DNA from: a virus
Strand: one strand, 5' to 3'
DNA: 64,000 nt
IMG/VR virus record: IMGVR_UViG_3300047445_000186
Location: 129,829 to 193,828 of that record
Made by a program: the position numbers and the translations under genes. Below the pieces are notes generated by a model. That model saw only the letters and a list, made by a program, of their open reading frames with translations. It did not search any database and was not told the DNA's origin. Shown here one piece after another: positions 8,408-39,588 of the stretch; the stretch's first letter is position 1; each line of letters starts with the position of its first letter.

Positions 8408-9502
8408 ATGAAAGTTTACTTAGTTGGTGGCGCAGTTCGTGATAAGTTGATGGGACTTCAGCCGAAGGACCGAGATTGGGTTGTGGTTGGCGCCACTGAA
8501 GCCGATGTTCAGAAAATGTTGGCGGATGGTTACACGCAAGTGGGGGCAGACTTTCCGGTCTTCCTCCACCCAGAGACGAATGAAGAGTACGCGCTTGCTC
8601 GCGTTGAACGCAAGAACGGCGTTGGGTACCACGGTTTCACCGTGCAAGCCGATGCATCCGTGACGATCGAAGAAGACCTGGCCAGACGCGATCTGACCGT
8701 GAACTCGATGGCCATGGACGACGATGGCAAGATCATCGATCCTTTCGGGGGTCTCCGGGATTTGCGAAATGGCGTTCTGCGGCACACGACCGAGGCATTC
8801 GCTGAAGATCCTCTTCGCGTTCTTCGCCTTGCTCGCTTCGCTGCTCGACTCCCTGCATGGCGCGTCGACGAAAGCACGAAAGCGCTCTGTTGGAAGCTCG
8901 CGTCTGAAGGTGAGCTGAATCACCTCTCGATCGAACGGATCTGGGCCGAGTTGGAGAAGGGATTCGCCGCGAAGAACCCAGGCCGCATGCTCGAAGTTCT
9001 CGAGCGGACTGGTGCTCTCCTGTTCTGCGACACTCTGTCGGCCGTGTTCGGCCCTGGTCTCGAAGACTCGGCGTTCAAGGTCTTGAACACCTTGGCTGCG
9101 GTGCCCCAGGAGAAACGATTCGCGGCCTGTGTAGGAGCTATCGCTCTTCCAGACAGTGATCTCCCGGGCGCATCGGCACGTGTCCGTGAGTGCCTGAAGA
9201 ACGTGACTGCCCTGAGGAACGCGAAGTTCACGTGCCACGATCTGGCCGAGGTCTTGAAGCGCTCTCGTGCTCTTGGCGAAGGTCCAGCGTTCAGCGACTT
9301 CTTGTCGGCAGTCGTTGCGATCGAGAGTGCTGGAACTCGACTGCCGTTCTCGATGAAGCAGCTCGCCTTGGCCGCGCACATCATGAAGGGCGTGAAAGCG
9401 ATCCAGTTCCCTGGTATCGTCGGGAAAGCTCTCGGTCAGGCGATCGAGAACCAGCGAGTCCAGAACCTCCAACAAGGCTTGAACATCCCGATCAACGTGT
9501 AA
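8408..9502 (+). CDS. cca: CCA-adding tRNA nucleotidyltransferase (class II, head/neck/body; HD region degenerate)
   Basis: MKVYLVGGAVRDKLMGLQPKDRDWVVVG, DFPVFLHPETNEEYALARVERK and RDLTVNSMA are near-identical to the bacterial CCA enzyme catalytic head. The 364-aa length and absence of the His-Asp HD signature suggest no phosphohydrolase activity. Confidence 0.9.
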   Translation: MKVYLVGGAVRDKLMGLQPKDRDWVVVGATEADVQKMLADGYTQVGADFPVFLHPETNEEYALARVERKNGVGYHGFTVQADASVTIEEDLARRDLTVNSMAMDDDGKIIDPFGGLRDLRNGVLRHTTEAFAEDPLRVLRLARFAARLPAWRVDESTKALCWKLASEGELNHLSIERIWAELEKGFAAKNPGRMLEVLERTGALLFCDTLSAVFGPGLEDSAFKVLNTLAAVPQEKRFAACVGAIALPDSDLPGASARVRECLKNVTALRNAKFTCHDLAEVLKRSRALGEGPAFSDFLSAVVAIESAGTRLPFSMKQLALAAHIMKGVKAIQFPGIVGKALGQAIENQRVQNLQQGLNIPINV

Positions 9503-18570: not shown

Positions 18571-18987
18571 TCACGCTGCTTTGACGCGGAATTCTTCCTT
18601 GTCATGGCCAGCTTGAACAGCTTCCCGCAGCCAGCGTGGCGTACTCCCTCCACCCGACCACTTGTTCCCATTCTCGTCCGAGTACTTCACCGCCTTCGGA
18701 ACTCCAGCGAGAGGTCCACGGTGAACCTTCTCCTTCCTCGACTTGCTGTGCACTGCTTGAGCGCGCTTTGACACGACCTTCTTCGCGGGTTTCTGCTTCG
18801 CGACTGCCTTGACCTTCTTGAGCGACACACCATCTGCAGCGTACAGATCGGCCGCGGTGATGCTGTACACGGCGATTGCTTCGCGAATGCGCTTGATCAC
18901 GCCATCAGCTTCGCGCTGACGCATTGCGTTCGCTTTGTCTTGGAGCGCAGCTATTTGCGCCATCAATGCTTCGTACGATCTTGCCAT
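18571..18987 (-). CDS. H-NS family nucleoid-associated protein
   Basis: C-terminal KYSDENGNKWSGGGSTPRWLREAV matches the H-NS DNA-binding motif (Y..ENGE.KTWTGQGRTP..I). N-terminal coiled-coil. Confidence 0.85.
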   Translation of the reverse strand: MARSYEALMAQIAALQDKANAMRQREADGVIKRIREAIAVYSITAADLYAADGVSLKKVKAVAKQKPAKKVVSKRAQAVHSKSRKEKVHRGPLAGVPKAVKYSDENGNKWSGGGSTPRWLREAVQAGHDKEEFRVKAA

Positions 18988-19360: not shown

Positions 19361-19394
19361 GTATCCTCCTAGAGGTTGGGCGATTTAATAAAAA

Positions 19395-19413
19395 GTGTCC
19401 TGAATTAGGACAC
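19395..19413. promoter_or_regulatory. perfect 7-5-7 palindrome GTGTCCTgaattAGGACAC in AT-rich divergent intergenic region
   Basis: Seen directly. Located between the minus-strand operon (18998-19360) and the + strand gene at 19501. Flanked by AATAAAAA and TTTTAATT. Confidence 0.45.
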
Positions 19414-19500
19414 GTGTTCATTTTAATTCGTGAACCTGAGTCCGACTCCTTGTTACCTTCGTTACGAAGTGGAACAATTAAATAGACCGGAGGTCATGAT

Positions 19501-20046
19501 ATGAAATACTGGTCGCGCGTGCATTTGCCGAATTACGAAGAAGGTGCAGCGAAAATTATGGAGTGGGTCGAGCAGCGGAGATACACCAAGAACGGACACT
19601 TCTGGAACCACGTTGGAGCGACAGTGCTAAGGGCGCTCGCTCCTGGACTGTTCGAAGATTTGAAGCCATATGGTGTCGTCACGTACGCAGCAATTCTCGT
19701 CTCCCCTCCAGGCCTGATGAACATTCACATCGATGACGAAGCAACGAATCTCGGTGTTCAAGCTCGTATTCAGATTCCACTGAAGAACACTGCTGGTACC
19801 GAGACCCGTTTTTACTCAATTGAGCACGCAGTTCCTATCAAGACTCCAACCACGAATGGTCTGCACTTCTGGCGGTACGATGAGGAGCAGTGCGAGCAAG
19901 TTGACATGGTCAGCGTGACTGAGCCGACCATTCTCCGAATCAGCGCGCCGCACGCAGTTTACGTGCCGCCAAATGCGCCGAAGCGATACGCCTTGACTCT
20001 CCGCCTTACCAATGATCCAGTGAGATACCTAGATGAGCACTCCTAA
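19501..20046 (+). CDS. cupin-fold (2OG-Fe oxygenase-like) protein, paralog of 22125 and 62223(-)
   Basis: Shares the core ...PPG...HIDDE...QARIQIPL... with the paralogs (HVDGEK / HLDSGE). Confidence 0.5.
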   Translation: MKYWSRVHLPNYEEGAAKIMEWVEQRRYTKNGHFWNHVGATVLRALAPGLFEDLKPYGVVTYAAILVSPPGLMNIHIDDEATNLGVQARIQIPLKNTAGTETRFYSIEHAVPIKTPTTNGLHFWRYDEEQCEQVDMVSVTEPTILRISAPHAVYVPPNAPKRYALTLRLTNDPVRYLDEHS

Positions 20047-20656
20047 AAACATTTCAAGCCTGTTCAAAATCGAATGGGACAAAGTTATCAGTCAAGTTCA
20101 AGAAATCTCGAAGCTCGAGAAGGTTAGTTTCACTGGTGGTGGATGGGGAGGCTGGAGCCTGACGTCAAACACCGGGAAGTTCGCCGATGGTTGGGAAGCC
20201 GGTCAGCTCGCGTTCAAGCGCGACGAGGACGGGAACATCTACAAGGATGAAGAGCTTGCCAAGAAGCTTGGCGTTCAAAAGCACGGTGCCCATAACAAAT
20301 ACACCGAGATCGCCACGCCAGAGTTGATGTCGTGCGTTCAGCAGGTTGCGAAGTACGGTCTCAGACCTGATCGTGCCAGAATTACGCAGCTCTCTCCGAC
20401 TCAACACGCGCAATGGCACACAGATGGAACGCCGGAGATCGACACATTCCGCGTGCACTTCGTATTTGAGACGAACCCCGAGGCGTTCTTCTATACTCAG
20501 GCCGGAACATTCCATCTTGAAGCACGGCAAGTGTACATGGTGAAGGTGAATGATCTGCACAAGGTCGAGAACCTTGGTGAGACAAAGCGAACCCATCTGA
20601 TCATGGACATCTTCGCTCCACGGGCAAAGTACTTCTACTATGTTGCCGCCCTATAA
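20033..20656 (+). CDS. Asp/Asn beta-hydroxylase-like 2OG-Fe(II) oxygenase
   Basis: QWHTDGTPE...FRVHFVFET...HLIMDIF pattern resembles PF05118-type hydroxylases (LpxO/OlsC relatives). Confidence 0.45.
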   Translation: MSTPKNISSLFKIEWDKVISQVQEISKLEKVSFTGGGWGGWSLTSNTGKFADGWEAGQLAFKRDEDGNIYKDEELAKKLGVQKHGAHNKYTEIATPELMSCVQQVAKYGLRPDRARITQLSPTQHAQWHTDGTPEIDTFRVHFVFETNPEAFFYTQAGTFHLEARQVYMVKVNDLHKVENLGETKRTHLIMDIFAPRAKYFYYVAAL

Positions 20657-21227
20657 GTCACTCGACTTCAAGTTGTTGTCTGATGAGGCGATCAAGAAGA
20701 TCGCTGATTTTGTTCTGGCAAAGCCTGAAGTAATCCAATCACACGTGTCTACCGTGACTGGTAAGTACGATGGGATCAGCTATCCGAAGCCACAAGCATT
20801 GACGGCGATCTTGGGGCTGATCAGAGCCGAGTACAAGATCATCCGTGAATCTTGCACGCTGCCATTCGAACCGTCTCTGATTTACTGCAAGCCAGGCACT
20901 GTCGTTCAGCGCCATGCCGACGGAAAGAAGTCAACTCGGATGTGCACGATCATTACGCCGATCCATCCATTGACTGAGTACGCGCCAACAATGTTCTGGC
21001 AGAGCTGGAACGCGAGATCACCACGCGCGGTGCTTACGATTGATAAGCTCCCTGCACTCGTGAACATCCAAGAGCTGCACAGTCTGACGAACGGCTCTGA
21101 GCCTCGATTCAACTTCCAACTCGGCTTTGGCGAACCGTACGAGGTCGTTCTTGACTTACTTCAGCGGGGTGAGTTGTTCAAGAAGCTCGGTGAACGTGCA
21201 AGTCCACTTGTCTCTGAACTGAATTGA
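20640..21227 (+). CDS. hypothetical protein (195 aa)
   Basis: ORF overlapping the upstream gene by 17 nt. Confidence 0.45.
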   Translation: MLPPYKSLDFKLLSDEAIKKIADFVLAKPEVIQSHVSTVTGKYDGISYPKPQALTAILGLIRAEYKIIRESCTLPFEPSLIYCKPGTVVQRHADGKKSTRMCTIITPIHPLTEYAPTMFWQSWNARSPRAVLTIDKLPALVNIQELHSLTNGSEPRFNFQLGFGEPYEVVLDLLQRGELFKKLGERASPLVSELN

Positions 21228-22088
21228 TCGAGCCTCAAGCAGGGGCGTGTGATTCCGATGGTACAGAACTGGAACCATCTCAGCACCAGTGAACTTCATT
21301 CGATTGGCAAGCTCAGGCCAATACTTCTTGTACACTTTGTACTTCACGTACCTTGAGTTCTCGAAGATTTTCGTGGCGATCTTGTCTTCACCCATAGCGA
21401 GTCGTTCAATTAATGGCTCGCGCATCATCGACAGAACAATCTCAGGCGTGTGCTCAAAGAATCCGAGTCCACCGAGAATACCTTCGGAGATTGCATATCG
21501 ATACCAAGCGAGAATGTGCTCGAGCTGAACGTACTTCCATTCAGTGCCGAACTTCTCGAGGTACATGTCACCGTTCCCCATCACTGGCAGACCGTTCCAC
21601 TCGTTCCAAATCACATTCATGAGCTTCATGTGTGGAACCATGCCGAACGTATCAGCCTGAGATTGAGTGAACATCGTCCGAGCTTCATTCGTCACGATCC
21701 AATTCTCGATCGTGATCATGTAGTACTCGGGATTCAGATTCATGCTCTTGCAGAACTGTTCAACATACGCGATCTCATGAACGTTCTTGTCTTGCGTGAA
21801 TCTGAACGTGGCGATCTTGAACGGCACGTCGGCCTCAATGAACGCCTTCACGACTACTTCGCTGTCCATGCCGCCACTGAGCATCACAACTGGAATCCGA
21901 CCGAGGCTCTTTGCCTGTTCGCTCAGGAGCTTTGCAACGTTCACGCACTCTTCACGGAATGTACCAGGTTCGCGAGTGCAACGAGAGAACGAACATTGCA
22001 AGGTGTTCTCAGCGATCTTATCGTTCGGGTTGAACAGCCCGCCCTCGTATCCGAACTGAACGTGATCATCAAGTGTAAAGGGTAGCAT
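21156..22088 (-). CDS. PP-loop ATP pyrophosphatase (asparagine synthetase-like / adenine-nucleotide alpha-hydrolase)
   Basis: SGGMDS PP-loop motif (VVMLSGGMDSEVV) about 70 aa from the N-terminus. Confidence 0.6.
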   Translation of the reverse strand: MLPFTLDDHVQFGYEGGLFNPNDKIAENTLQCSFSRCTREPGTFREECVNVAKLLSEQAKSLGRIPVVMLSGGMDSEVVVKAFIEADVPFKIATFRFTQDKNVHEIAYVEQFCKSMNLNPEYYMITIENWIVTNEARTMFTQSQADTFGMVPHMKLMNVIWNEWNGLPVMGNGDMYLEKFGTEWKYVQLEHILAWYRYAISEGILGGLGFFEHTPEIVLSMMREPLIERLAMGEDKIATKIFENSRYVKYKVYKKYWPELANRMKFTGAEMVPVLYHRNHTPLLEARSIQFRDKWTCTFTELLEQLTPLK

Positions 22089-22124
22089 TTTGGAATCGGT
22101 AAATACTCGAGCAAATATTTAGAA

Positions 22125-22691
22125 GTGCCCTCGATGTCAAAGTACTCCAAGAATCTCGTGATCCCTTTCGAACTCGATCTGTTCCCTTCAGTGAAGGCTT
22201 CAGGTGAAGGAGCGCCACTGGACAAGCTTGGTCACTTCAAGTACGACAAGAGCTCGCTGCCGCAAGAGCTGATTGAGTTCATGCGCGAGCGTGATCTACA
22301 ACCAGGACATTGTGAGGTGTTCTACACTCCGCCTGGCGCGTCACTGCCGATTCACGTTGATGGCGAGAAGCTCTCTAATTTGGCGAAGATCAATTGGTGC
22401 TACGGCGGACCAGGGAGCATGATGACTTGGTACAAGCTTCTCGTGCCTGAATCAGAGGTTGAACAGAAGCAAACTGGTCTTGAGACCAGCTATCTGATTC
22501 CGTCGTTCAAGCAGTGCCGAATGATTCACTCTGCGAAGATCGGGTTGCCTACTCTCGTGAACGTTGGAGTGCCGCATGCCGTGATCAATCCTTCACGTGT
22601 CGGACGATGGGTGCTTAGCGTAGTGCCGTACGACCTGCAATTAGGCAGCAATCTGTCATTCGACGTTGCTCTGGAGCGGCTCAGCCGATAA
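22125..22691 (+). CDS. cupin-fold oxygenase-like protein (paralog family)
   Basis: CEVFYTPPGASLPIHVDGEK...NLAKINWCYGGPGSMMTWYKL is closely similar to the 62223..62798(-) product. Confidence 0.5.
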   Translation: MPSMSKYSKNLVIPFELDLFPSVKASGEGAPLDKLGHFKYDKSSLPQELIEFMRERDLQPGHCEVFYTPPGASLPIHVDGEKLSNLAKINWCYGGPGSMMTWYKLLVPESEVEQKQTGLETSYLIPSFKQCRMIHSAKIGLPTLVNVGVPHAVINPSRVGRWVLSVVPYDLQLGSNLSFDVALERLSR

Positions 22692-23436
22692 ACTCTGGGA
22701 GCGCTTTCTTACTGAGGTGTGCGAGATTACCGTACTTCTGAACAGAGCGCTCGAGCAGATCTTCGCACTTCTCCAAATTCATCGTGGCTCGAGTGAAGAT
22801 CATCAAGATCTTGATGTGATCGTCGTGATAGGAACTGCCATGCTTTGCTCGCACGTTGTTCCAACCGAATACGTTCGTGTCTGTCCGCGCCAGTGGCAGA
22901 ATTGGATTTGAATTGCTCGCACCAGGAACGCATTGGCGAATGAACAACGTCTCTCTTGGGTTGTTGTCGTACAGCATGATTCGGAAGCTGGACGGCATGT
23001 CTTCCCATGGAGACTGATCACGATGAAGACCAACTGGTCGTTCACTTGACCATAGCGAGAACTCAGGCTCTCCATCAAATGGAAGCGCCTTGATGCCTTC
23101 TGCAATCTCAGGGAATTCAGTCAGAACATCGTGCTTGTTCTGCTCCCAGATATCGTCAAGCTGATTCGGAGAGTTCACACTCAAGAACGTTCGGTCTGCT
23201 TTGTACGCATCACCCGCAACGTCAGCTCGGACCTTGTTCACGGTTTTTGCGCGCTCAAGGAACCACGACAAGAACAGCTCAGGATCGTTCGGCTTGATTG
23301 ATGGAATATCAAGCGGAAGGTACATGTACTTCCCGTACTTGTGCTCAAGAAGACCGAGCTTGATCCGCTGGCCCTTGTACCTCTTGTCGAGATACGCGTT
23401 CCGCCATTCAATGATGTTCTGTCGTTCAGTGCTCAT
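22681..23436 (-). CDS. hypothetical protein (251 aa), possibly cupin/dioxygenase-like
   Basis: ORF on the minus strand. Contains GLHRDQSP and HGSSYHDDH His-rich motifs. Confidence 0.4.
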   Translation of the reverse strand: MSTERQNIIEWRNAYLDKRYKGQRIKLGLLEHKYGKYMYLPLDIPSIKPNDPELFLSWFLERAKTVNKVRADVAGDAYKADRTFLSVNSPNQLDDIWEQNKHDVLTEFPEIAEGIKALPFDGEPEFSLWSSERPVGLHRDQSPWEDMPSSFRIMLYDNNPRETLFIRQCVPGASNSNPILPLARTDTNVFGWNNVRAKHGSSYHDDHIKILMIFTRATMNLEKCEDLLERSVQKYGNLAHLSKKALPEFIG

Positions 23437-23472
23437 GGGTTATTTAGCCTAGCCGCGCCCCGTAAATATCAG

Positions 23473-24060
23473 ATGAAAGCACGCCAAACTACCATTGCAG
23501 ATCGTCCCCAGATTGAAGCGATCGTGAAGTCTAACCCGAAGATGTACGGAGCTGACATCACTCGGTATCACAGCATCACGATCCATCGATTCGTTGGGCA
23601 CGTGGTTGGCGATCTGGCGAAGACTGCATGGTGTGTCGAAGACGACGAGGGTCAGATCGTCGGACTGGCGATTCAGTTCTGGTGGACCTCAATGCCGGCC
23701 TGGTCGATTGCCTCTCTGTTCTTCAAGAATGAACCTGGCAAGAATCAGTTCAACGCGCACAAGATTGGCGCCGTCCTGGTGAATGCGATGTGCAAAGAAG
23801 CCGAATCCCGAAAGATGTACGACTTCTACTACGTAGTAAGAGATAATGAATCTCTTCGTAAGAACATGAGCTTGAGCGTGAACGACGAATTCACGGAGAG
23901 GTACGAGATCAACGATCTGTTCCTGCTGCATCCGTACACTTCGCCGATCTACCCGATGTTCAAGAACATGCTCGGACACGTAATTGGGCGGAACCGCAAA
24001 CCAGTGGTTTTCCGCCTTGCATCGCTTAAGAGCAAATATAGGCCGTCTGTATGGGTGTGA
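23473..24060 (+). CDS. hypothetical protein (about 195 aa)
   Basis: ATG 23473. The listed ORF start 23341 would overlap the convergent gene. Confidence 0.45.
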   Translation: MKARQTTIADRPQIEAIVKSNPKMYGADITRYHSITIHRFVGHVVGDLAKTAWCVEDDEGQIVGLAIQFWWTSMPAWSIASLFFKNEPGKNQFNAHKIGAVLVNAMCKEAESRKMYDFYYVVRDNESLRKNMSLSVNDEFTERYEINDLFLLHPYTSPIYPMFKNMLGHVIGRNRKPVVFRLASLKSKYRPSVWV

Positions 24061-25505
24061 ACGTTCTGATCTTCACTTGCGTCTCTGGACGATTGTTCCA
24101 GCGCGCGATTGGAGCGTACCAGGTTGCTGGGTTTCTGCGGCAGCATGGGTACTCAGTGCAGGTCGTTGACTTCACAGACAACTTCACTGAACAGGAATTG
24201 AAGAAGGCCGTCGATCTTTACGTCGACGAGACAACCCTCGCTGTCGGCGTTTCAACCACGTTCTACAGTCATCTCGAAAACAAGTTCATCGCCGCGAAGA
24301 AGACCTTCGACGCGATCATTCCACAGGAACTTGAGAACGCGATCGTGTACTCGAAGGAGAAATTCCCGAAAGTAAAGATCGTTTTCGGTGGTTCGCGATC
24401 ACTGGCAGGCGAGGCAATGCCTTGGGTTGACATGGTCATTCACGGGTACGGTGAAGACAAGTTCCTGACGTACTTGGATGGTCTGTCTGGGCGCGCACCA
24501 AAGATCTTCTCGATCGGCAAGCCCTTGCGCGTGATCATGGACGATCCGCCGAAGAAGCGATTCGACATCCAAGAGCTGAGCCATCAGTTCGCGCCACAGG
24601 ACTTCGTTCTACCTGGTGAAACGCTCCCGATTGAAATCAGCCGTGGCTGTATCTTCAAGTGCAAGTTCTGCGCGTACCCGCTGAATGGCAAGAAGAAGAT
24701 GGACTTCCTTCGTTCCGCTCAGTGCGTTCAGGAAGAGCTGTTGCACAACTACGAGAAGTACGGAACCACGTCGTACTTTATCGGCGACGACACGTTCAAC
24801 GACAGCACATTCAAGCTAGAGGCATTGCACAAGGTAATCACCGAGCTGCCGTTCAAGCCGAAGTTCACGTGCTATCTGCGACTCGATCTGCTGTACGCTC
24901 ATCGCGAACAGATCCAGCTCCTCGATGAGATGGGTCTTGCTTCACCGTTCTTTGGGATCGAATCGCTGAATCAAAAGTCAGCCACCTCGATCGGCAAGGG
25001 CATGAAGACTGGCAAGGTCAAGGATTTCCTACTCGAGCTCTATCACGATCACTGGCGCGGAGAGAAGCCATTCACGTGCTCGTTCATTGTCGGTCTGCCG
25101 CATGAGACCCGTGAAACCGTTCAAGAGACATTTGAGTGGGTGAAGAAGACTGAACTGAGCTCGACGTTCTTTCCGCTGAGCATCTCAATCAAGTCGTTCT
25201 ACCAGTCCGAGTTCAATCGGAACTACAAGGATTACGGGTACGATCTGAAGGATCCAGAGACCGGGTACTGGGAGAGTGAGAATTTCACGCTCGATTCGGC
25301 CACTGAGATTGCCGAGCAGTTCAACAAAGAGCTGATGTACACGAACGATCGGCCGAGCTCTTGGTTCCTGATGACGATGCTGAATCACGGGATGACCCTT
25401 GAAGAGGCACGAAAGGTCTTGGTGAAGGACCTGCCTTGGCCGAAGATTCTGCGGACAAAGCGGGACAAGGTCGCCGAGTACAAAAAGCTTGTTCTGCAGA
25501 GCTAA
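24051..25505 (+). CDS. B12-binding radical SAM enzyme (class B)
   Basis: N-terminal Rossmann-like cobalamin-binding region, then EISRGCIFKCKFCAY (CxxxCxxC 4Fe-4S/SAM motif). Confidence 0.85.
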   Translation: MGVNVLIFTCVSGRLFQRAIGAYQVAGFLRQHGYSVQVVDFTDNFTEQELKKAVDLYVDETTLAVGVSTTFYSHLENKFIAAKKTFDAIIPQELENAIVYSKEKFPKVKIVFGGSRSLAGEAMPWVDMVIHGYGEDKFLTYLDGLSGRAPKIFSIGKPLRVIMDDPPKKRFDIQELSHQFAPQDFVLPGETLPIEISRGCIFKCKFCAYPLNGKKKMDFLRSAQCVQEELLHNYEKYGTTSYFIGDDTFNDSTFKLEALHKVITELPFKPKFTCYLRLDLLYAHREQIQLLDEMGLASPFFGIESLNQKSATSIGKGMKTGKVKDFLLELYHDHWRGEKPFTCSFIVGLPHETRETVQETFEWVKKTELSSTFFPLSISIKSFYQSEFNRNYKDYGYDLKDPETGYWESENFTLDSATEIAEQFNKELMYTNDRPSSWFLMTMLNHGMTLEEARKVLVKDLPWPKILRTKRDKVAEYKKLVLQS

Positions 25506-25530
25506 ATATCCGGTTAAACTTGGAAGACTC

Positions 25531-25839
25531 ATGCACAAAGTTACCTACAAATACACGCATCCGACAGATGCCACTGGCCTGATCTCGATGACGACAGAGG
25601 AACTCGCGTACCGCGACACGTTCCTGACATGGGCGTATCAGAACGGCCTCGTTGCAACAGAGACCAGCATTGTCGACACAAAGACGATCATGCACGAAGT
25701 TCTGTGGAGCAACAAGATCGCGTTCGACGCTTTCCGTGGTCACTTCGGTCAAGAGTACCACACGTTCGTTGATAACATCCTCGCTCAAGTTGAAGCGAAG
25801 GGTGGCTCGCACGAACTGATCGAAGCTGACATCGCCTAA
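25531..25839 (+). CDS. hypothetical protein (about 102 aa)
   Basis: ATG 25531 after GGAAGA. ORF continues to TAA 25839. Confidence 0.4.
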   Translation: MHKVTYKYTHPTDATGLISMTTEELAYRDTFLTWAYQNGLVATETSIVDTKTIMHEVLWSNKIAFDAFRGHFGQEYHTFVDNILAQVEAKGGSHELIEADIA

Positions 25840-26546
25840 TGCTGTCACTGGATGAAGCTCAACGGGCGCTGATTCTCAAGAAGCTTGCGCCCCTAGGACG
25901 TGTACCTCGGTACGATGCGGAGGCGCAGACCGTCACGCTCTCCGAGACATCAGCACGTCGCTTCATCATTGATGGGACCGCGTGCACCCAGCGGCCGCGT
26001 TCAATCGCGCTCCAGGACCCAAAGGCGTACGATCCGTCTTATCTCGGATTTGGTATTCACGAAGCCCTCAGTGTTCTGATCCAAGACGACTACGCACTGT
26101 ACGCGACTCTGTTCGACACCGTCAGACAGATCGATTCGACAGCAAGCACAATGTTCGGTTCATGCGAGCAGGCGGCGTTGATTCTGTCGCATAATTCATT
26201 CGGTGAAGAGCTGTTCCCGCATGTTCATGCCAGATCGATGATGGACACGCAGACTCTGTCGCTGTTCGTGAATTTGACTGGGACTGACTCAGCAACCCTG
26301 ACGCTATTCGATCCGGTCACTGAAGACTCACGAGTGTTCAAGAACGGATACACCGATCATCGCGTTGTTGCGGTGCACGCTCGGAAAGCCGATCAGCGTG
26401 AAATCAAGATCGAACACGGGTCATTCATCCTGTTCGACGCTGCGAAGACACCACACAAGTTCTCGTACAGCGACGACATCTGGCTCACGTTCGTGTACGA
26501 TCACGTCAATGGAGTCAGAGAAGATGTTCGCGCCAACTCCCTTTAA
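25839..26546 (+). CDS. hypothetical protein (235 aa)
   Basis: TAATG overlap with the upstream gene. Confidence 0.45.
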   Translation: MLSLDEAQRALILKKLAPLGRVPRYDAEAQTVTLSETSARRFIIDGTACTQRPRSIALQDPKAYDPSYLGFGIHEALSVLIQDDYALYATLFDTVRQIDSTASTMFGSCEQAALILSHNSFGEELFPHVHARSMMDTQTLSLFVNLTGTDSATLTLFDPVTEDSRVFKNGYTDHRVVAVHARKADQREIKIEHGSFILFDAAKTPHKFSYSDDIWLTFVYDHVNGVREDVRANSL

Positions 26547-27279
26547 GATCCTTTTCGTTCAGCTCCTGGCATGGATCGGTATTCCGGTCCTGCTTTGGTA
26601 TGGTTCATGGGTGCACATCATCGGCGCCCTGCTGATGTACACACTGTACGGTGGTGCTGGAGTTTCACTGACGTTCCATCGGATCCTGTCGCACGCTGCG
26701 TTCAAGTTGAATCCAATTGTGCGGAAGATCATGATCACGCTTGCGAGCTTCGCGAACGTCGGATCACCAATCACCTGGGTTGCCGTACATCGAGCGCACC
26801 ATCGGTTCGTTGACACTGAACGCGATCCGCATTCACCACATCACATGCCGTTCTGGTACATGATGTTCGGCACGATGTACTCACAAGTCTCGGTGAAGTT
26901 CACTGTCGATCTGCTTCGTGATCCATTCTGTAGGTTCATCCATAAATACTACTTCGCAGTTCAGCTTCCATGGATCGTTCTGCTGTTCTTGCTTGGCGGG
27001 TGGAAAGCCGTTCTTGCGTTCCATCTCGTTCCAGGCGGAATGACATGGCTTGGCGGATCGCTCGTGAACTACTTGAATCATCTACATGGGTACAAACCAT
27101 TCGACGGTCAGGGAACTAGCACGAACAATCTGATCACTGGATTCTTGGTGTTCGGAGAAGGTTGGCACAACATGCATCACGCGAAGCCGACCACACCGAC
27201 TACGAAGCTGAATTGGTGGGAGTTCGATTTGGTTTACCAGATCGGCAGACTGATTGGAACACCAAGGGGCAAGAGATGA
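26524..27279 (+). CDS. membrane fatty-acid (acyl-lipid) desaturase
   Basis: Three His boxes (HRILSH, HRAHHRF, HNMHHA) and TM helices. RBS GGAG 9 nt upstream of ATG 26524. Confidence 0.85.
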   Translation: MFAPTPFKILFVQLLAWIGIPVLLWYGSWVHIIGALLMYTLYGGAGVSLTFHRILSHAAFKLNPIVRKIMITLASFANVGSPITWVAVHRAHHRFVDTERDPHSPHHMPFWYMMFGTMYSQVSVKFTVDLLRDPFCRFIHKYYFAVQLPWIVLLFLLGGWKAVLAFHLVPGGMTWLGGSLVNYLNHLHGYKPFDGQGTSTNNLITGFLVFGEGWHNMHHAKPTTPTTKLNWWEFDLVYQIGRLIGTPRGKR

Positions 27280-27890
27280 TTTACTCAGTCGAGAACTGGG
27301 AGCTTGTTCAGCGTTTACGGGCTGACAAGCAGGCGTTGATGGATGAGTACACTGGCGCAGCGAACAGAACGCTGAACAAAGTGAACGCACTCACGAAGTC
27401 GAACAAGATGCTGTTCGATAAGCCGATGAGCGTGCTTCCATACATCTGGGATACTAGGCTCTGGACGGCCGATGAAAAGATTGGTGCAAAGATCGACACA
27501 GTTGGTCTGCTTCAACCGCCGAACCCATTGCCAGTGGGGAACACGATCGTACAAGACTTCCCGTGCATTCGGCAATTCTTCTGGGCTTCACTGCTTCCAG
27601 GTGGAAAGATCAATCCGCACGTTGGCGTGAACGGCATTCTGTACAAGCGAATCCCTGATCATTACCGCATTCAAATCTGCTGGTTCCCAGGAACGGGCGC
27701 TGCATTTCACGTTCAAGATCGATTCATCGAGTACAAGGAAGATGCGTGCTTCGGCTTCGAAGACGGTAATGAGCTTCACTGGGTCGAGCATCATGGCGAT
27801 CAAATCAGAACCACTCTCATTCTTGATGTGTGGCGTGATCAAGTACCTGCGCTGCGCGCACCTCATCCAGATGCTGTTCTCAAAAGTTGA
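27276..27890 (+). CDS. Asp/Asn beta-hydroxylase-family (LpxO/OlsC-like) 2OG-Fe(II) oxygenase
   Basis: ATGA coupling to the desaturase. KINPHVGVNGILYKRIPDHY...FHVQDR...HWVEHHGD conserved-His pattern of PF05118. Confidence 0.55.
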   Translation: MIYSVENWELVQRLRADKQALMDEYTGAANRTLNKVNALTKSNKMLFDKPMSVLPYIWDTRLWTADEKIGAKIDTVGLLQPPNPLPVGNTIVQDFPCIRQFFWASLLPGGKINPHVGVNGILYKRIPDHYRIQICWFPGTGAAFHVQDRFIEYKEDACFGFEDGNELHWVEHHGDQIRTTLILDVWRDQVPALRAPHPDAVLKS

Positions 27891-28377
27891 TCTGGACATC
27901 TCGTTCACGAAGCAGGCACGTCGTGGAAAGTACGTGCTTAGCTACGGGCCGATCCATTACTACACCGTTCTCGGTAATCCATTCCCGTTCAAACTGATCA
28001 AGGCCTGGAAGCCGGACCTTGTGCGTTGGGTTGAGATCACTGGCACGCAACCAGCTGGTCCGCATCGTGATCATGGGATTACGACCACGTTGAATTGCTA
28101 CATGGATGCTCCGTCTGGCGAGACGAAATTCTGGCGTGAAGGCGCGAACAGTGCTCCATTCCGTGTAAAGGGCGCCGTGACATCGAACGGGTACGTGCAA
28201 AGCACACTGGATTTTGTTGATTCATTCAAGGCGTTCACGGGTGACGCGTACCTGCTGAACGTGTCTGAAATCCACTCGGTTGAGAAGGAAATCGACGTCA
28301 ATCGGCGGTTCATCCAGCTCTCTTGGAACACCGTACCGTTCGACCAGGTTCTGAAGCTCGTTCAAACGCCGTTGTAG
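27871..28377 (+). CDS. hypothetical protein, possibly cupin-like (about 168 aa)
   Basis: ORF overlapping the upstream end. PHRDHG motif. Confidence 0.4.
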   Translation: MLFSKVDLDISFTKQARRGKYVLSYGPIHYYTVLGNPFPFKLIKAWKPDLVRWVEITGTQPAGPHRDHGITTTLNCYMDAPSGETKFWREGANSAPFRVKGAVTSNGYVQSTLDFVDSFKAFTGDAYLLNVSEIHSVEKEIDVNRRFIQLSWNTVPFDQVLKLVQTPL

Positions 28378-28393: not shown

Positions 28394-29422
28394 ATGGAAC
28401 CGAAACTTCTGACACGCGATGCCTTCCGAGAAGGTGTGTTCGCACGGGACAAGCACAAGTGCGTGTTCTGCAGCGAGCCTGCTCAGGACGCGCATCACAT
28501 TCTCGAGCGCCGTCTTTGGCCTGATGGCGGGTACTACCTCGAGAACGGCGCGTCTGTTTGCGGTGAGCACCACATTCTGTGCGAGCAGACTGTCATTTCG
28601 GTCGAGCAAGTTCGCGATGCATGTGGCATTCGCCAACCGCACGTTCCTCCGCATTTCTACCCAGATCACCAGTACGACAAGTGGGGCAACCCTCTGCTCG
28701 ATGGTGGCAAGCGCGGTCGTGGTGAACTGTTCTTCGACGAGTCAGTCCAGAAGGTCCTTGGCCAAGGTGGCGTGCTCGATCTGTTCACGTTGTACGCGAA
28801 GTACGGACGGACGTTCCATCTGCCATGGTCTCCTGGCATTCACGACGATGACAAGGCGCTGAAGGACTGCACACAGTTCGAAGGTAAGCGCGTGATCATG
28901 TCGCTGAAAGCCGATGGTGAGAACACCACTGGGTACTCGGACGGGCACATTCATGCTCGCTCGATTGACAGCCGAGGCGGTGAAGATCGCGCTTGGGTGA
29001 AGCAATTCCTGTCTGAGAACGTGTGCTACAACTTGCCTGAAGGCTGGCGAATCTGCGGTGAAAATCTGTGGGCCGAGCACTCGATCAAGTACAGCGACTT
29101 GAAATCGTACTTCTACGGCTTCAGCCTGTGGAATGAACGGAACGTCTGCCTCTCGTGGGACGAGACGATCGAGTATTTCGCTCTGTTAAACGTCACTCCA
29201 GTCGACGTGCTCTATGACGGTATCTGGGACGAGGCTGCGATCAGGAAAATCGAGAAGACGCTTGATCTTGAGAAGGTTGAAGGGTACGTGATCCGACTCG
29301 CTGAAGCGTACCCGTACAGCCAATTCAAGAGCTCGATCGCGAAGTTCGTCCGACCCGGGCACGTACAGACATCTAAGCATTGGCGGGCAGGTAGCCGCTT
29401 CACACCGAACAAACTAGCATGA
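28394..29422 (+). CDS. HNH zinc-finger nuclease domain fused to Rnl2-like ATP-dependent RNA ligase
   Basis: N-terminus CVFCSEPAQDAHHILERRLWPDGGYYLENGASVCGEHH is an HNH motif. Then nucleotidyltransferase motif I SLKADGEN, motif IV VEGYVIR and motif V KFVR, as in T4 Rnl2-type ligases. Confidence 0.7.
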   Translation: MEPKLLTRDAFREGVFARDKHKCVFCSEPAQDAHHILERRLWPDGGYYLENGASVCGEHHILCEQTVISVEQVRDACGIRQPHVPPHFYPDHQYDKWGNPLLDGGKRGRGELFFDESVQKVLGQGGVLDLFTLYAKYGRTFHLPWSPGIHDDDKALKDCTQFEGKRVIMSLKADGENTTGYSDGHIHARSIDSRGGEDRAWVKQFLSENVCYNLPEGWRICGENLWAEHSIKYSDLKSYFYGFSLWNERNVCLSWDETIEYFALLNVTPVDVLYDGIWDEAAIRKIEKTLDLEKVEGYVIRLAEAYPYSQFKSSIAKFVRPGHVQTSKHWRAGSRFTPNKLA

Positions 29423-37871: not shown

Positions 37872-37971
37872 GCCTCTCGATTCGAGAGGCGTTATTTCAA
37901 AACGTGCAGATAGGATTCCGAGGAAAGCTGAAGGCCAGGATTCGGAGGAAGCAGTACGTTTTGAAATAACG
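37872..37971. promoter_or_regulatory. 19-nt perfect palindrome (GCCTCTCGATTCGAGAGGC), then a 14-nt inverted repeat (GTTATTTCAAAACG ... CGTTTTGAAATAAC) ending at the 5' end of the first tRNA
   Basis: Seen directly. Likely a transcription or processing signal for the tRNA array. Confidence 0.4.
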
Positions 37972-38046
37972 GGTCGTTGACAGAGCGGCAGATGTACCTC
38001 CCTCTTAAGGAGATCTAGCAGGGTTCGACTCCCTGGCGACCCACCA
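37971..38046 (+). tRNA. tRNA-Lys(CTT)
   Basis: Manual fold: acceptor GGGTCGT / GCGACCC, T-loop GGTTCGACTCC, anticodon loop CTCTTAA, CCA encoded. Confidence 0.6.
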
Positions 38047-38051
38047 AACAT

Positions 38052-38162
38052 GCCGAGATAGCACGATGGTCGTGCACTTTATGTAAGAGCGAGTGTCTAC
38101 GGGAAACACGGCACTTGACAGAAAAGAAACGGATGGTGGTTCAAATCCATCTCTTGGCGCCA
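38052..38162 (+). tRNA. atypical long tRNA-like gene (about 111 nt; type II or intron-containing, identity unresolved)
   Basis: Acceptor GCCGAGA / TCTTGGC, D-arm GCAC-GATGGTC-GTGC, T-arm GGTGG-TTCAAAT-CCATC, encoded CCA. About 39 extra nt lie between the D- and T-arms. Confidence 0.35.
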
Positions 38163-38168
38163 AACAAT

Positions 38169-38244
38169 GGGACTTTCGTATAGCTGGTGCGTACGGGAGC
38201 TTGAAAACCTTCAGGAAGCGGTTCGATTCCGCTAGGTCCCACCA
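38169..38244 (+). tRNA. tRNA-Phe(GAA)
   Basis: Acceptor GGGACTT / AGGTCCC, anticodon loop TTGAAAA, T-loop GGTTCGATTCC, CCA. Confidence 0.55.
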
Positions 38245-38248
38245 ATTT

Positions 38249-38323
38249 GCTTCGTTCGACTACCGGTTAGGTCGCTAGCCTTTCAAGCTGGAGAAACGGG
38301 TTCGACTCCCGTACGAAGCACCA
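38249..38323 (+). tRNA. tRNA-Glu(TTC)
   Basis: Acceptor GCTTCGT / ACGAAGC, anticodon stem CTAGC / GCTGG with loop CTTTCAA, T-arm ACGGG-TTCGACT-CCCGT. Confidence 0.55.
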
Positions 38324-38330
38324 GAACAAT

Positions 38331-38409
38331 AGGGTTGAAATCGAAGTGGCACGAGATACATGGCTTTGACCCATGGTAATATCAGGTTCGAGTCCTGACA
38401 GCCCTGCCA
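38331..38409 (+). tRNA. tRNA-Gln(TTG)
   Basis: Anticodon stem CATGG / CCATG with loop CTTTGAC, T-arm TCAGG-TTCGAGT-CCTGA, CCA. Confidence 0.55.
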
Positions 38410-38414
38410 AACAT

Positions 38415-38492
38415 ATCAGCGTCGTCTAAATGGTCTAGGACATCAGACTTTCAATCTGAGCAATGCGGGTTCAACTCCCGTCGCTGATGCCA
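38415..38492 (+). tRNA. tRNA-Glu(TTC) (second copy, different backbone)
   Basis: Acceptor ATCAGCG / CGCTGAT, anticodon stem TCAGA / TCTGA with loop CTTTCAA. Confidence 0.5.
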
Positions 38493-38498
38493 AACAAT

Positions 38499-38573
38499 AC
38501 CTTAGTAGCTCAGTGGTAGAGCACCGTCTTGATAAGGCGTAGGTCGTTGGTTCGATTCCAACTTAAGGTACCA
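38499..38573 (+). tRNA. tRNA-Ile(GAT)
   Basis: GCTCAGTGGTAGAGC D-arm, anticodon loop TTGATAA, T-loop GGTTCGATTCC. Confidence 0.6.
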
Positions 38574-38580
38574 GAATAAT

Positions 38581-38654
38581 GGGACGTTCGTATATGGGTA
38601 TTATGTGGCGCTGTCTACGCTACGAAACGGGTTCGAGTCCCGTACGTCCCGCCA
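38581..38654 (+). tRNA. tRNA-Asp(GTC)
   Basis: Acceptor GGGACGT / ACGTCCC, anticodon stem TGGCG / CGCTA with loop CTGTCTA. Confidence 0.6.
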
Positions 38655-38658
38655 AATT

Positions 38659-38733
38659 CGTGCGGTAGCATTATGGTAATGCGCCACCCTCATAAGGTGT
38701 CCCAAGTGGGTTCGATTCCCACCTGCACGACCA
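38659..38733 (+). tRNA. tRNA-Met(CAT) (or Ile2/initiator; CAT anticodon)
   Basis: D-stem GCAT / ATGC, anticodon loop CTCATAA, T-arm GTGGG-TTCGATT-CCCAC. Confidence 0.55.
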
Positions 38734-38744
38734 AGTGTCCTTTG

Positions 38745-38818
38745 CTCCGGTGTAGCTCAGCGGTAGAGCAGCTCGCTGTTAACGAGTTGGTCGTTGGTTC
38801 GATCCCAGCCTCCGGAGC
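38745..38818 (+). tRNA. tRNA-Asn(GTT)
   Basis: GCTCAGCGGTAGAGC D-arm, anticodon stem GCTCG / CGAGT with loop CTGTTAA. No CCA encoded. Exact 5' end uncertain. Confidence 0.5.
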
Positions 38819-38833
38819 AAAGAACATTTCTAT

Positions 38834-38928
38834 TCCCCTGTACTCTAATTGGTAAGAGACCTGGCTGTTAACCAGACGTAAAGGCCGTAAGGCGTAATAT
38901 GCAAGTTCGAAGCTTGCTGGGGGAGCCA
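38834..38928 (+). tRNA. type II (long variable arm) tRNA, anticodon loop CTGTTAA; isotype unresolved
   Basis: 95 nt. Acceptor TCCCCTG / TGGGGGA, T-arm GCAAG-TTCGAAG-CTTGC, variable arm of about 24 nt, CCA. Confidence 0.4.
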
Positions 38929-38978
38929 AGATTAAGAAACCTTACTCACGCGGTCACTCGCGGTCCCGTAGGGTTTAT

Positions 38979-39054
38979 GCGCGGTTAGCTCAGTTGGTAG
39001 AGCAAACGACCGATAATCGTTAGGTCGCTGGTTCGAATCCAGCACTGCGCACCA
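38979..39054 (+). tRNA. tRNA with GAT-like anticodon (loop CCGATAA, C33; Ile-like, identity uncertain)
   Basis: Acceptor GCGCGGT / ACTGCGC, GCTCAGTTGGTAGAGC D-arm, T-loop GGTTCGAATCC, CCA. Confidence 0.5.
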
Positions 39055-39062
39055 CAAATTAT

Positions 39063-39139
39063 GCCTCTTTAGCTCAACTGGATAGAGCACTGGCCTACGA
39101 AGCCGGGGGTTGCAGGTTCGAATCCTGTGAGAGGCACCA
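39063..39139 (+). tRNA. tRNA-Arg(ACG)
   Basis: Anticodon stem CTGGC / GCCGG with loop CTACGAA, T-loop GGTTCGAATCC, CCA. Confidence 0.6.
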
Positions 39140-39214
39140 GAATATTCCGACCGTCAGTGCAAGGTTATCCTTCTACGATTCCCCCTTGCGCGATCTCTTT
39201 GTCGGACGAAACAT

Positions 39215-39288
39215 AGGTCCTTGGTGTAATGGCAGCATGACGGTCTCCAAAACCGTTCGTGGGGGTTCGAGTCCCTCAGGACCTGCCA
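39215..39288 (+). tRNA. tRNA-Trp(CCA)
   Basis: Acceptor AGGTCCT / AGGACCT, anticodon stem ACGGT / ACCGT with loop CTCCAAA, T-arm GGGGG-TTCGAGT-CCCTC. Confidence 0.6.
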
Positions 39289-39357
39289 AGATAACGGTGC
39301 GTTTAGGAACGGACGCTTAATTGCCAACCCCACATAATCTGGCGGCCGAATAACAAT

Positions 39358-39432
39358 GTGCACTTGACAGAATGGTAATGTCGCTGGCTGCAACCCAGTT
39401 GTTCGGGGGTTCGATTCCCTCAGTGCACTCCA
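39358..39432 (+). tRNA. tRNA-Cys(GCA)
   Basis: Acceptor GTGCACT / AGTGCAC, anticodon stem GCTGG / CCAGT with loop CTGCAAC, CCA. Confidence 0.6.
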
Positions 39433-39588
39433 ATTACGACAGGAGCAAGGCGCCCTCGGGCTTGTGGCTAGCTGTGGAAAGTGACCCTCCACCTCCAACG
39501 TCGTTCCAATCAAAGCTTCGTCGTTCCATTCACACGGGTACGCGACTCCGTTTCTCGCAAGAGGTGCAGGGCGAAGCAACGCAATTAT

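Follow-up and report, generated by a model that had tools for sequence, protein, structure and literature searches.

Whether the enzymes encoded at positions 19501-28377 of a 64,000-nucleotide (nt) stretch of viral DNA (IMG/VR record IMGVR_UViG_3300047445_000186, positions 129,829 to 193,828; the whole stretch is hereafter the window) act in one pathway, and on what substrate, is the question raised by this locus. An initial annotation, made from the sequence of the window, had described the block (hereafter the island) as an unusually complete toolkit for editing host acyl chains, lipid A or ornithine lipids, composed of cupins, hydroxylases of the LpxO/OlsC family, a PP-loop ATPase, a cobalamin-dependent radical S-adenosylmethionine (SAM) enzyme and a membrane desaturase. 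All the genes that it had named were found in place, in one contiguous block. The carrier of the island is an uncultivated jumbo phage of ~332 kb: public contigs, the longest of them 331,776 bp, carry an identical radical SAM protein, and the window is phage-like, with tRNA genes and PHROG matches to tRNA nucleotidyltransferase and RNA ligase.

The reading proposed here from sequence comparison, to which somewhat less than an even chance is given, is that the island would encode one co-expressed pathway for the tailoring (in its relatives also for the building) of a fatty-acyl molecule, the product being a tailored amino-lipid or lipo-amino-acid-like compound. A single pathway is suggested because module members occur as domain fusions, are translationally coupled and recurrently co-occur. 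The substrate would be fatty-acyl since a membrane enzyme of the stearoyl-CoA desaturase (SCD) type is present and genes like those of fatty-acid synthase (FAS) neighbour the module in relatives, and the polar part would be amino-acid-like or amine-bearing because of the Cpz10-like hydroxylases, the putatively adenylating PP-loop enzyme and a candidate amine-acylating transferase of the GNAT fold.

Enzymes encoded by the island

The open reading frame (ORF) listing and the gene calls on the public contigs gave 13 genes at 19501-28377, 11 on the + strand and two on the - strand (lengths in amino acids, aa):

19501-20046, +: g01, soluble cupin, PF05118-like Fe(II)/2-oxoglutarate (2OG) oxygenase, 181 aa
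20033-20656, +: g02, Cpz10-like cupin, PF05118 (Asp_Arg_Hydrox), 207 aa
20640-21227, +: g03, probable divergent cupin, 195 aa
21156-22088, -: g04, PP-loop ATP pyrophosphatase, 310 aa
22134-22691, +: g05, cupin paralogue, PF05118-like, 185 aa
22681-23436, -: g06, putative HxD...H metal enzyme of an undescribed family, 251 aa
23473-24060, +: g07, GNAT-fold transferase, 195 aa (239 aa from an alternative GTG start at 23341)
24051-25505, +: g08, radical SAM enzyme of a phage-specific clade with predicted class-B (B12-type) two-domain architecture, 484 aa
25531-25839, +: g09, small protein directly downstream of the radical SAM gene, 102 aa
25839-26546, +: g10, putative metal enzyme (HxH...H) of an undescribed family, 235 aa
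26524-27279, +: g11, predicted integral-membrane diiron acyl desaturase of the SCD1/Δ9 type, 251 aa (256 aa from an alternative start at 26509)
27276-27890, +: g12, PF05118 cupin, coupled to g11, 204 aa
27835-28377, +: g13, cupin paralogue, PF05118-like, 180 aa (start as in the public-contig calls)

Neighbours on the same strand overlap by 1-56 nt or are separated by gaps of at most 25 nt, and translational coupling runs throughout the island, including the ATGA at 27276-27279 in which the g11 stop and the g12 start overlap, as the initial annotation had noticed. The GC content of the island (51-53%) lies inside the even range of the window (51-58%). A scan for promoters and terminators gave sites no more numerous than in shuffled sequences, and PADLOC returned a generic radical SAM candidate match only.

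Families were compared within a local protein set made up of the window and 92 related loci, families in the latter being called by a simple longest-ORF heuristic; since iterated profiles can drift, reliance was placed on BLAST-defined families, hhalign and motif conservation. Two of the cupins, g02 (39.0 bits, 9.7e-10) and g12 (35.6 bits, 1e-8), passed the PF05118 threshold of 22.6 bits, which bears out the claim of at least two proteins of this family. The others (g01, g03, g05 and g13) gave no direct Pfam match and are tied to PF05118 via profile-profile links only: hhalign related g01 to g05 at 99.5%, g05 to g13 at 96% and g01 to g13 at 95%, and placed g01, g02, g05 and g12 with the PF05118-like family c3 at 89-99% (g01 92.5%, g05 89%, g12 89.5%). 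The HxD...H...R metal/2OG motif is kept in each cupin family, both in the families of g01 (conserved H76, H151 and R162), g05 (HxD, H, R) and g13 (H, D, H, R) and in the g02/g12 family. The weakest assignment is that of g03, related to the g05 family by hhalign at 63% and matched by iterated cupin profiles at 1e-5 to 3e-4, in which a HAD...LHS...PRF motif is visible by eye. Because of the profile-profile links and the conserved HxD...H...R pattern, the island is counted on sequence as holding six PF05118-like cupins, with g03 as the weakest member. The three paralogous cupins of the initial annotation are thus recovered in the mutually related g01, g05 and g13, but the count of PF05118-like proteins is six, not three plus two.

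The closest characterised relative of these cupins is Cpz10. A profile of g02, g12 and 23 relatives matched Cpz10 (7V4F) over its full length at 1.4e-29 among PDB sequences, followed by L-proline cis-4-hydroxylase (5e-12) and human AspH (6e-5). In the g02-family alignment (25 sequences) H129 and H176 are invariant and D131, R140 and R186 near-invariant, and the metal/2OG residues of the family align to H106/D108/H154/R170 of Cpz10, overall identity being low. Cpz10 is a 182-aa soluble homodimeric cupin which β-hydroxylates the amino-acid moiety of a caprazamycin (liponucleoside) precursor by means of H106/D108/H154 and R170 (PMC9814697). A Kyte-Doolittle scan found no hydrophobic or membrane segment in any of the island cupins (180-207 aa), and NCBIfam gave no match for them at E<=0.1.

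The desaturase g11 scored 66.2 bits against the FA_desaturase (PF00487) threshold of 29.7 (5e-18), and its best solved relative is mammalian SCD1 (4YMK, 9e-14), compared with which it is shortened at both ends. The three His boxes that had been claimed (HRILSH, HRAHH...DPH and HNMHH) are complete on alignment: HRILSH, HRAHHRFVDTERDPH, the NxxxH pair and HNMHH lie in register with SCD1 and all iron ligands are kept. The boxes are also kept in 47 of 49 distinct relatives. By a crude hydropathy scan g11 is the sole island protein with hydrophobic segments, three of them strong and two of these overlapping; SCD1 has four helices. Among the GenBank phages it matched only Pelagibacter phage Mosig and two bacterial contigs mislabelled as 'Acinetobacter phage MD-2021a'; the record CAKLQH020000002.1 of the latter (L009) is a mislabelled ordinary Acinetobacter chromosome, with trpABC, btuB, baeSR and cardiolipin synthase.

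The radical SAM enzyme g08 passed the Pfam Radical_SAM threshold (57.3 bits against 29.5; 2.8e-15), and its C200xxxC204xxC207 motif is invariant in 28 homologues. The AlphaFold model (pLDDT 89.5, pTM 0.89) comprises an N-terminal Rossmann-like domain (five-stranded α/β, residues 5-146) and a TIM barrel, and its best Foldseek matches were the cobalamin radical SAM enzymes MgmA, TsrM, OxsB and TokK; AprD4 and MiaB/RimO share the fold and also matched. Because the model folds and matches like cobalamin enzymes, the predicted class-B architecture is supported. Of the initial claim of a cobalamin-dependent enzyme, the CxxxCxxC motif holds and the modelled fold makes cobalamin a candidate cofactor; the Pfam B12-binding match (8.8e-6, 26 bits) fell below its threshold of 32.1. 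None of the named NCBIfam subfamilies (PhpK, TIGR04072, HpnJ/R, BzaD, RiPP C-methyltransferase; RiPP, ribosomally synthesised and post-translationally modified peptide) was reached at its cut-off, the sub-threshold matches being PhpK (1e-24), rSAM_ladder_B12 (8e-21), HpnJ (8e-19), BzaD and RiPP C-methyltransferase (7e-12), with a best score of 87 bits against cut-offs of 360-600 (e.g., 86.7 against 600 and 74.1 against 360). The second best of these, after the P-methyltransferase PhpK, and the longest, near-full-length one is TIGR04072 (rSAM_ladder_B12, 'lipid biosynthesis B12-binding/radical SAM'), below its cut-off. The adjacent g09 matched no family in Pfam and family searches and is found at the same position in the closest relatives (L001-L004, L008 and L175).

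The PP-loop ATPase on the opposite strand was confirmed as g04, whose SGGxDS residues S71, G72, G73, D75 and S76 are kept in family alignments of 20 and 24 relatives. Its suggested membership of PF06508 or PF00733 was not borne out: QueC scored 20.4 against 22 and Asn_synthase 16.4 against 21, only the first ~60 residues of the models being matched, and AsnB, TilS, MnmA and NAD synthetase were likewise sub-threshold. The best PDB matches of the g04 profile were MnmA, then QueC, TtuA and TilS, among NAD and GMP synthetases, and the likeness to MnmA, NAD synthetase, QueC and AsnB is limited to the N-terminal nucleotide-binding part. NCBIfam scores were far below the cut-offs, and the sugar-amidotransferase models were not matched.

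The GNAT fold of g07 was recognised by the family profile in the N-acetyltransferase 4LUA (2e-7) and in an AlphaFold model of moderate confidence (pLDDT 70), for which the top Foldseek matches were RimI, EctA, SpeG and PAT (~3e-7). No conserved glycine motif corresponding to the acetyl-CoA pyrophosphate-binding Q/RxxGxG/A was seen in 18 members of the family; a weak NCBIfam match to RiPP N-acetyltransferase was obtained, and database searches for a deeper alignment returned five proteins only. An assignment as N-acyl-homoserine lactone (AHL) synthase or N-acyl-amino-acid synthase was rejected, a single relative of 18 having matched Autoind_synth (2.7e-4) and the fold search having given ordinary N-acetyltransferases only.

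Two further proteins are putative metal enzymes by motif conservation. In g06, H138, D140 and H199 are invariant in 20 relatives, and no match was found in Pfam, NCBIfam or PDB sequences. In g10 the invariant residues are H118, H128, H130, S133, H206, D213 and D221; no PDB or NCBIfam match was found, and Pfam gave a weak WelO5 match at 0.06 only.

Outside the island the window holds two further loci with the same families:

47333-47989, +: PF05118-like cupin (g02-family profile 6.7e-17, g12-family profile 7.5e-8; no direct Pfam match)
62223-64000, -: second mini-cluster, with a g05-paralogue cupin (62223-62798), an SCD-type desaturase (62734-63546) and a small ORF that continues up to the end of the window (BLAST clusters, profiles, gene calls on L093; the public contigs stop shortly after 64 kb)

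The His boxes of the second desaturase are HRLFCH, HSSHH and HGHHH, and its FA_desaturase score of 28.6 bits lies just below the threshold. The lone cupin adjoins an HNH endonuclease (46694-47290) and a NUDIX hydrolase (46216-46665), and the mini-cluster adjoins a K1-lyase_C-like (tail-spike-type) protein at 61215-62117. Both loci had been missed in the initial annotation, as had the GNAT gene g07 and g06, g09 and g10.

Recurrence of the module in viral contigs

More than 2,400 database relatives of g08 were found; among the top 120, identity is 46% or more with 87% or more of the length covered, and several are encoded on contigs of 200-360 kb. In IMG/VR, at least 397 viral stretches with g08 relatives were confirmed by an alignment-based scan. 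Among 185,579 species-representative bacterial and archaeal genomes, identities of at least 30% were confined to nine short contigs of metagenome-assembled genomes, the rest being at 22-27%; judged by these comparisons, the g08 clade is essentially one of viruses. On many viral contigs of 100-360 kb the island families recur near radical SAM homologues, shuffled and duplicated; as the same family set is found in independent contigs, its grouping is not due to chance.

The seven independent loci with a radical SAM identity of at least 43% (L005, L007, L008, L013, L014, L015 and L022) all hold 3-5 desaturases, 1-2 g07-like GNATs, g06/g10 and cupins, and most of them a PP-loop gene, with gene order and strand shuffled. 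A PP-loop/GNAT/desaturase sub-block is found in loci including L008, L015, L026, L027, L033 and L047, and the window, L008 and L175 have in common a radical SAM-g09-g10-desaturase core, followed by a cupin or a small unannotated ORF.

Members of the module are also fused to one another. A HMMER search of the whole library with g04 gave 802 cluster representatives (50% identity) at E<=1e-3. Among the longer ones, P0165, P0169 and P0177 carry an N-terminal Pfam GNAT domain, P0251 a C-terminal g07-family domain (2.4e-13) and P0269 an N-terminal g02-like PF05118 cupin (5e-27). In addition, L005:7396-9279 encodes a 627-aa fusion of g06-like and g10-like domains. A g09-like middle domain in the latter was discarded as not significant (E ~0.08), as was the notion that g06 and g10 are paralogues: they co-clustered only via this fusion and are different domains. 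On sequence, the fusions of PP-loop with GNAT and with cupin domains speak for a pathway dedicated to a small molecule or head group, more than for independent editors of host lipids.

Genes for chain building, among them acyl carrier protein (ACP), ketosynthase (KS), phosphopantetheinyl transferase (PPTase) and short-chain dehydrogenase/reductase (SDR), were found beside the module in 6 of 11 independent close loci:

L005: ACP, PPTase, SDR and FA_hydroxylase beside the module
L007: KS overlapping a radical SAM-desaturase-desaturase operon
L013: ACP and KS beside the module
L015: ACP beside the module
L176 and the P0105 locus: KS, FabA/ApeI/ApeP-like dehydratase, ACP, PPTase (ACPS), Rieske protein and 3-4 desaturases
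L176: additionally SDR, methyltransferase and glycosyltransferases

In the window, L008, L014, L022 and L175, KS and ACP are absent within 10 kb of the module, and these loci are an oxygenase-rich subtype. A separate recurrent block, absent from the window, was observed at L005:13561-17746 and in L013, L017, L026, L055, L069, L070 and L072. In it, a QueC-like PP-loop protein of 211 aa, which bears a Cys cluster at its C terminus, is accompanied by a protein of 192 aa, a radical SAM enzyme of a second type (372-456 aa) and either a ~306-aa protein or a GT2; the block may represent a different module, of deazapurine or sugar type.

A proposed tailoring pathway and its alternatives

In the pathway proposed, the acyl chain would in this phage be supplied by the host, as acyl-ACP, acyl-CoA or lipid, because neither ACP nor KS is present in the window; the diiron enzyme g11, of SCD type, would then introduce the double bond at the membrane. 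No electron donor (ferredoxin, cytochrome b5, reductase) was found by Pfam among the island genes, and the desaturase would need that of the host. The class-B-type radical SAM enzyme g08 might C-methylate the chain or otherwise modify an unactivated carbon. The soluble enzymes would handle a polar part of amine or amino-acid type: g04 could adenylate a carboxyl or carbonyl group for amidation or ligation, g07 could N-acylate an amine, and the six Cpz10-like cupins together with g06 and g10 would bring about hydroxylation or other oxidative changes at differing positions. The outcome would be a compound of amino-lipid or lipo-amino-acid-like type, heavily oxygenated, with a change of the envelope, exclusion of other phages, or a signal or toxin as candidate roles.

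Several observations weigh against this pathway. Searches with phmmer and hmmsearch found no ACP, KS, PPTase, SDR, FA_hydroxylase or acyl-activating enzyme in the 64-kb window, and the toolkit, without ACP, KS or electron donor there, is not the complete one that had been claimed. In the window-like relatives L008 and L175, too, no KS or ACP lies within 10 kb, and where other relatives have FAS-like genes, these could be a neighbouring, separate module. In distant loci the association thins, and many genes for radical SAM homologues of 32-38% identity are found on their own amid replication genes, so that the enzyme is not obligatorily tied to lipids. AprD4, a diol dehydratase and not a methylase, is also a top structural match of g08, and the g07 model is most like acetyl-CoA-using acetyltransferases of amino acids and polyamines, not acyl-ACP enzymes.

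The enzymes might act independently on envelope lipids of the host, by LpxO/OlsC-like 2-hydroxylation of lipid A or ornithine-lipid chains, phospholipid desaturation and acyl methylation, and so remodel the membrane in infection; this is considered unlikely. The LpxO/OlsC family is that of PF05118, whose threshold g02 and g12 pass, the SCD-type desaturase has all its ligands, a host lipid is the simplest substrate for a window without FAS machinery, and phage desaturases have earlier been read as lipid auxiliary metabolic genes (AMGs) (PMC7678222). However, the cupins are short and soluble, without hydrophobic segment or NCBIfam match, and are nearest to Cpz10 and then to proline hydroxylase; the PP-loop and GNAT partners (the PP-loop being fused to cupin or GNAT in relatives) have no role in editing of the LpxO/OlsC type, the 6-8 oxygenase paralogues far exceed the needs of known lipid A or ornithine-lipid hydroxylation, and the families are virus-specific, not host-derived. 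What stands of the lipid-editing function first proposed is the single block and an acyl or lipid substrate as the best-supported one; its LpxO/OlsC, lipid A and ornithine-lipid specifics are not supported, the cupins being soluble and Cpz10-like and the fusions pointing elsewhere. The affinity to Cpz10 and proline hydroxylase would also suit a pathway to a small molecule or peptide that is not a lipid (derived from amino acids, of nucleoside type or RiPP-like), for which the probability is similarly low and in which the cupins would β-hydroxylate, the radical SAM enzyme C-methylate, the PP-loop enzyme amidate or cyclise, the GNAT acetylate and the 'desaturase' oxidise another hydrophobic group. 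The GNAT model nearest to RimI, EctA, SpeG and PAT with its weak RiPP N-acetyltransferase match, the likeness of g08 to the RiPP C-methyltransferase family (7e-12) and MgmA, and that of g04 to the Asn-synthetase type are in keeping with such chemistry. Yet no precursor-like peptide, protease, transporter, non-ribosomal peptide synthetase or nucleoside enzyme was found in the island by Pfam (short ORFs were not exhaustively searched), the conserved g09 (102 aa) has no precursor-like features, and KS, ACP and dehydratase genes occur in relatives, where the SCD-type desaturase is integral to the module, in 3-5 copies in the close ones, and adjoins PP-loop and GNAT genes.

A quite improbable alternative, drawn by analogy with PseH (GNAT) and PseA (PP-loop amidotransferase) of pseudaminic acid synthesis and with related cassettes that adjoin tail-fibre and glycosyltransferase genes in T4-like marine phages, is that the target of modification would be a glycan, a sugar of the nonulosonic-acid type or a protein of the virion (tail fibre). 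The Asp_Arg_Hydrox and FA_desaturase pair of phage Mosig lies in an island adjoining tail fibres, hypervariable regions of pelagimyophages mix LPS-type genes with radical SAM cassettes (PMC7029224), and glycosyltransferases and sugar epimerase/dehydratase genes are found near the module in L005 and L176. In or beside the island of the window, however, there is no sugar-nucleotide enzyme, glycosyltransferase or structural gene, and g04 did not match the sugar-amidotransferase models. We know of no role for a membrane SCD-type desaturase in the modification of glycans, sugars or tail fibres. About as slight a chance is given to there being no single pathway at all, the locus being instead a hyperplastic region in which 'morons' of the oxygenase and radical SAM kinds build up and are duplicated, each with its own target or none. 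Such a region would account for the highly shuffled gene order and copy numbers of 0 to 9 among relatives, for the cupins and desaturase dispersed at 47333-47989 and 62223-64000, and for the many distant radical SAM homologues without partners, but not for three kinds of domain fusion between module members, translational coupling through the block and a consistent six-family set in 7 of 7 close loci despite the shuffling. Hypermodification of tRNA or DNA bases is very improbable. Enzymes of all four types (PP-loop, GNAT, radical SAM and 2OG oxygenase) are known to take part in the modification of wobble bases and DNA bases, the PP-loop profile finds MnmA, QueC, TtuA and TilS, the radical SAM fold is also like that of MiaB/RimO, and the phage has 20 tRNAs, a CCA-adding enzyme and an RNA ligase beside the island; against this, the PP-loop likeness covers the generic nucleotide-binding part only, no cupin is of the TET/JBP or AlkB type, and membrane desaturases are out of keeping with it, as are the FAS-like genes that relatives carry. 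For the same reasons (the misfit of the desaturases and FAS-like genes and the generic PP-loop likeness) a split-Elp3 or tRNA wobble-modification analogy (radical SAM, GNAT, PP-loop and 2OG oxygenase) was rejected as the leading interpretation.

A bolder form of the amino-lipid pathway, which we regard as doubtful, is that large phages have a virus-specific pathway for a specialised lipid, a desaturated, radical-SAM-modified and multiply hydroxylated amino-lipid, made de novo in many relatives with phage KS, ACP, dehydratase and PPTase, and used in infection. Were it so, the lipid might, for example, be a component or label of a membrane structure made by the phage, change the envelope to the disadvantage of other phages or be a diffusible effector; the radical SAM enzyme, g06 and g10 would then each stand for a new family, with chemistry likewise new.

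The enzyme superfamilies are all known and the locus is in kind a tailoring or biosynthetic gene cluster, the clades being virus-specific. Because the core families are virus-restricted and not host-like, the AMG framing fits poorly as far as sequence tells: with a virus-specific radical SAM family, the island would not be a recently borrowed host set. 'Metabolic' genes of phages are usually single host-derived enzymes; the island, by contrast, is a multi-enzyme, virus-restricted module abundant in metagenomes. The combination had been called undescribed, and in no cultured phage searched was it found: g02, g04, g06 and g08 gave no tblastn match in 50,697 GenBank phage records, megablast of the island against GenBank phages gave none, and in BFVD the radical SAM enzyme had only 'uncultured Caudovirales' look-alikes. 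Nor did literature searches turn up a description of the module; they gave isolated remarks only, on a pelagimyophage core gene for a β-hydroxylase, on radical SAM cassettes, and on fabF with desaturase in freshwater pelagimyophages (PMC7029224). Should the product be a lipid, this would show that phages make and tailor lipids of their own, and the three uncharacterised families (the phage B12-type radical SAM clade, g06 and g10) and the Cpz10-like hydroxylases would become accessible to biochemistry and natural-product discovery; if the product is not a lipid, the recurrent fusions would still define a new pathway.

Genomic setting and known systems

To the left of the island a block of genes diverges from it at 19361-19500, a region with a perfect bidirectional hairpin at 19395-19413; the block includes a gene at 18571-18987 (-) whose 138-aa product has the C-terminal DNA-binding domain of H-NS (5e-10). 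The next gene downstream of the island encodes an RNA ligase, at 28394-29422 (PF09414; phrog_24030, 4.5e-137), whose N-terminal ~60 residues also match HNH endonuclease families. It belongs to a sizeable set of RNA-repair and translation genes, which includes a tRNA nucleotidyltransferase of the CCA-adding type (8408-9502), a Ro-like 'RNA-binding protein' (phrog_850; 49531-51150), a NinI-like Ser/Thr phosphatase (5355-6383) and 20 tRNA genes, 19 of them in an array at 37971-40496 and one at 43783-43859. The tRNAs serve 14 amino acids, of which Glu, Ile, Asn, Lys, Thr and Arg have duplicate tRNAs, and one tRNA-Asn is unusually long (95 nt, 38834-38928). An operon at 55541-60564 encodes a PrkA/YeaG kinase-like ATPase, DUF444/YeaH and SpoVR; the nearest relatives of the PrkA/YeaG protein (52-55% aa identity) are in Ralstonia jumbo phage RsoM2USA, Enterobacter phage LAU1 and 'uncultured phage' genomes of 630-640 kb.

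When the module is set beside characterised enzymes, Cpz10 resembles the phage cupins in being a small soluble cupin of the Asp/Asn β-hydroxylase type with H/D/H ligands and the 2OG Arg in register; it is, however, a single enzyme of an actinomycete liponucleoside cluster, whereas the phage has six diverged paralogues and no other caprazamycin genes. LpxO and OlsC/OlsD have PF05118 in common with g02 and g12, and a lipid context is plausible as the desaturase is coupled to g12. LpxO and OlsC are proteins of ~280-300 aa, membrane-associated via a hydrophobic anchor; the phage cupins, which are set apart from them without a direct sequence comparison with LpxO/OlsC, are ~100 aa shorter and have no predicted membrane segment. 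The Δ9 desaturases of the SCD1, DesC and DesA3 type share with g11 the three His boxes, the NxxxH pair and, as predicted, the integral-membrane character, but g11 has ~250 aa, without the N- and C-terminal parts of SCD1 and with no electron-transfer partner nearby, and relatives have 3-5 diverged copies per locus.

Class-B radical SAM enzymes (MgmA, TsrM, OxsB, TokK, TIGR04072, HpnJ, HpnR) combine a Rossmann-like N-terminal domain with a TIM barrel bearing CxxxCxxC, as the model predicts for g08, which differs in scoring below every family cut-off and in belonging to a clade virtually confined to viral contigs. Clusters like type II FAS or polyketide synthase (PKS), such as those of aryl-polyene and ladderane type, are approached by relatives of the island, where KS, ACP, PPTase, FabA/ApeI/ApeP-like and SDR genes join the same radical SAM and desaturase families; the window, in contrast, has no chain-building genes, and the known clusters are cellular. 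To our knowledge, none of the latter carries a swarm of PF05118 cupins with PP-loop and GNAT partners.

The islands of T4-like marine phages (pelagimyophages, cyanomyophages, Mosig) differ from the present one in lying beside tail fibres and in being rich in sugar enzymes, and Mosig has no tblastn-detectable homologue of the radical SAM enzyme g08, the PP-loop protein g04, g02 or g06. In common with it, these islands have the Asp_Arg_Hydrox and FA_desaturase pair, radical SAM cassettes and TauD/2OG-oxygenase paralogues (PMC7029224). In the cultured T4-like Pelagibacter phage Mosig (MT647606, L010) the two genes of the pair are adjacent, at 54.7-60.9 kb, in an island that also holds genes for a MoaA-like radical SAM protein, TauD, an aminotransferase, a carbamoyltransferase, a methyltransferase, a nitroreductase and an acetyltransferase beside tail fibres. 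BLAST clustering groups a cupin of Mosig with family c3, and this phage is a possible experimental handle on the pairing of cupin and desaturase.

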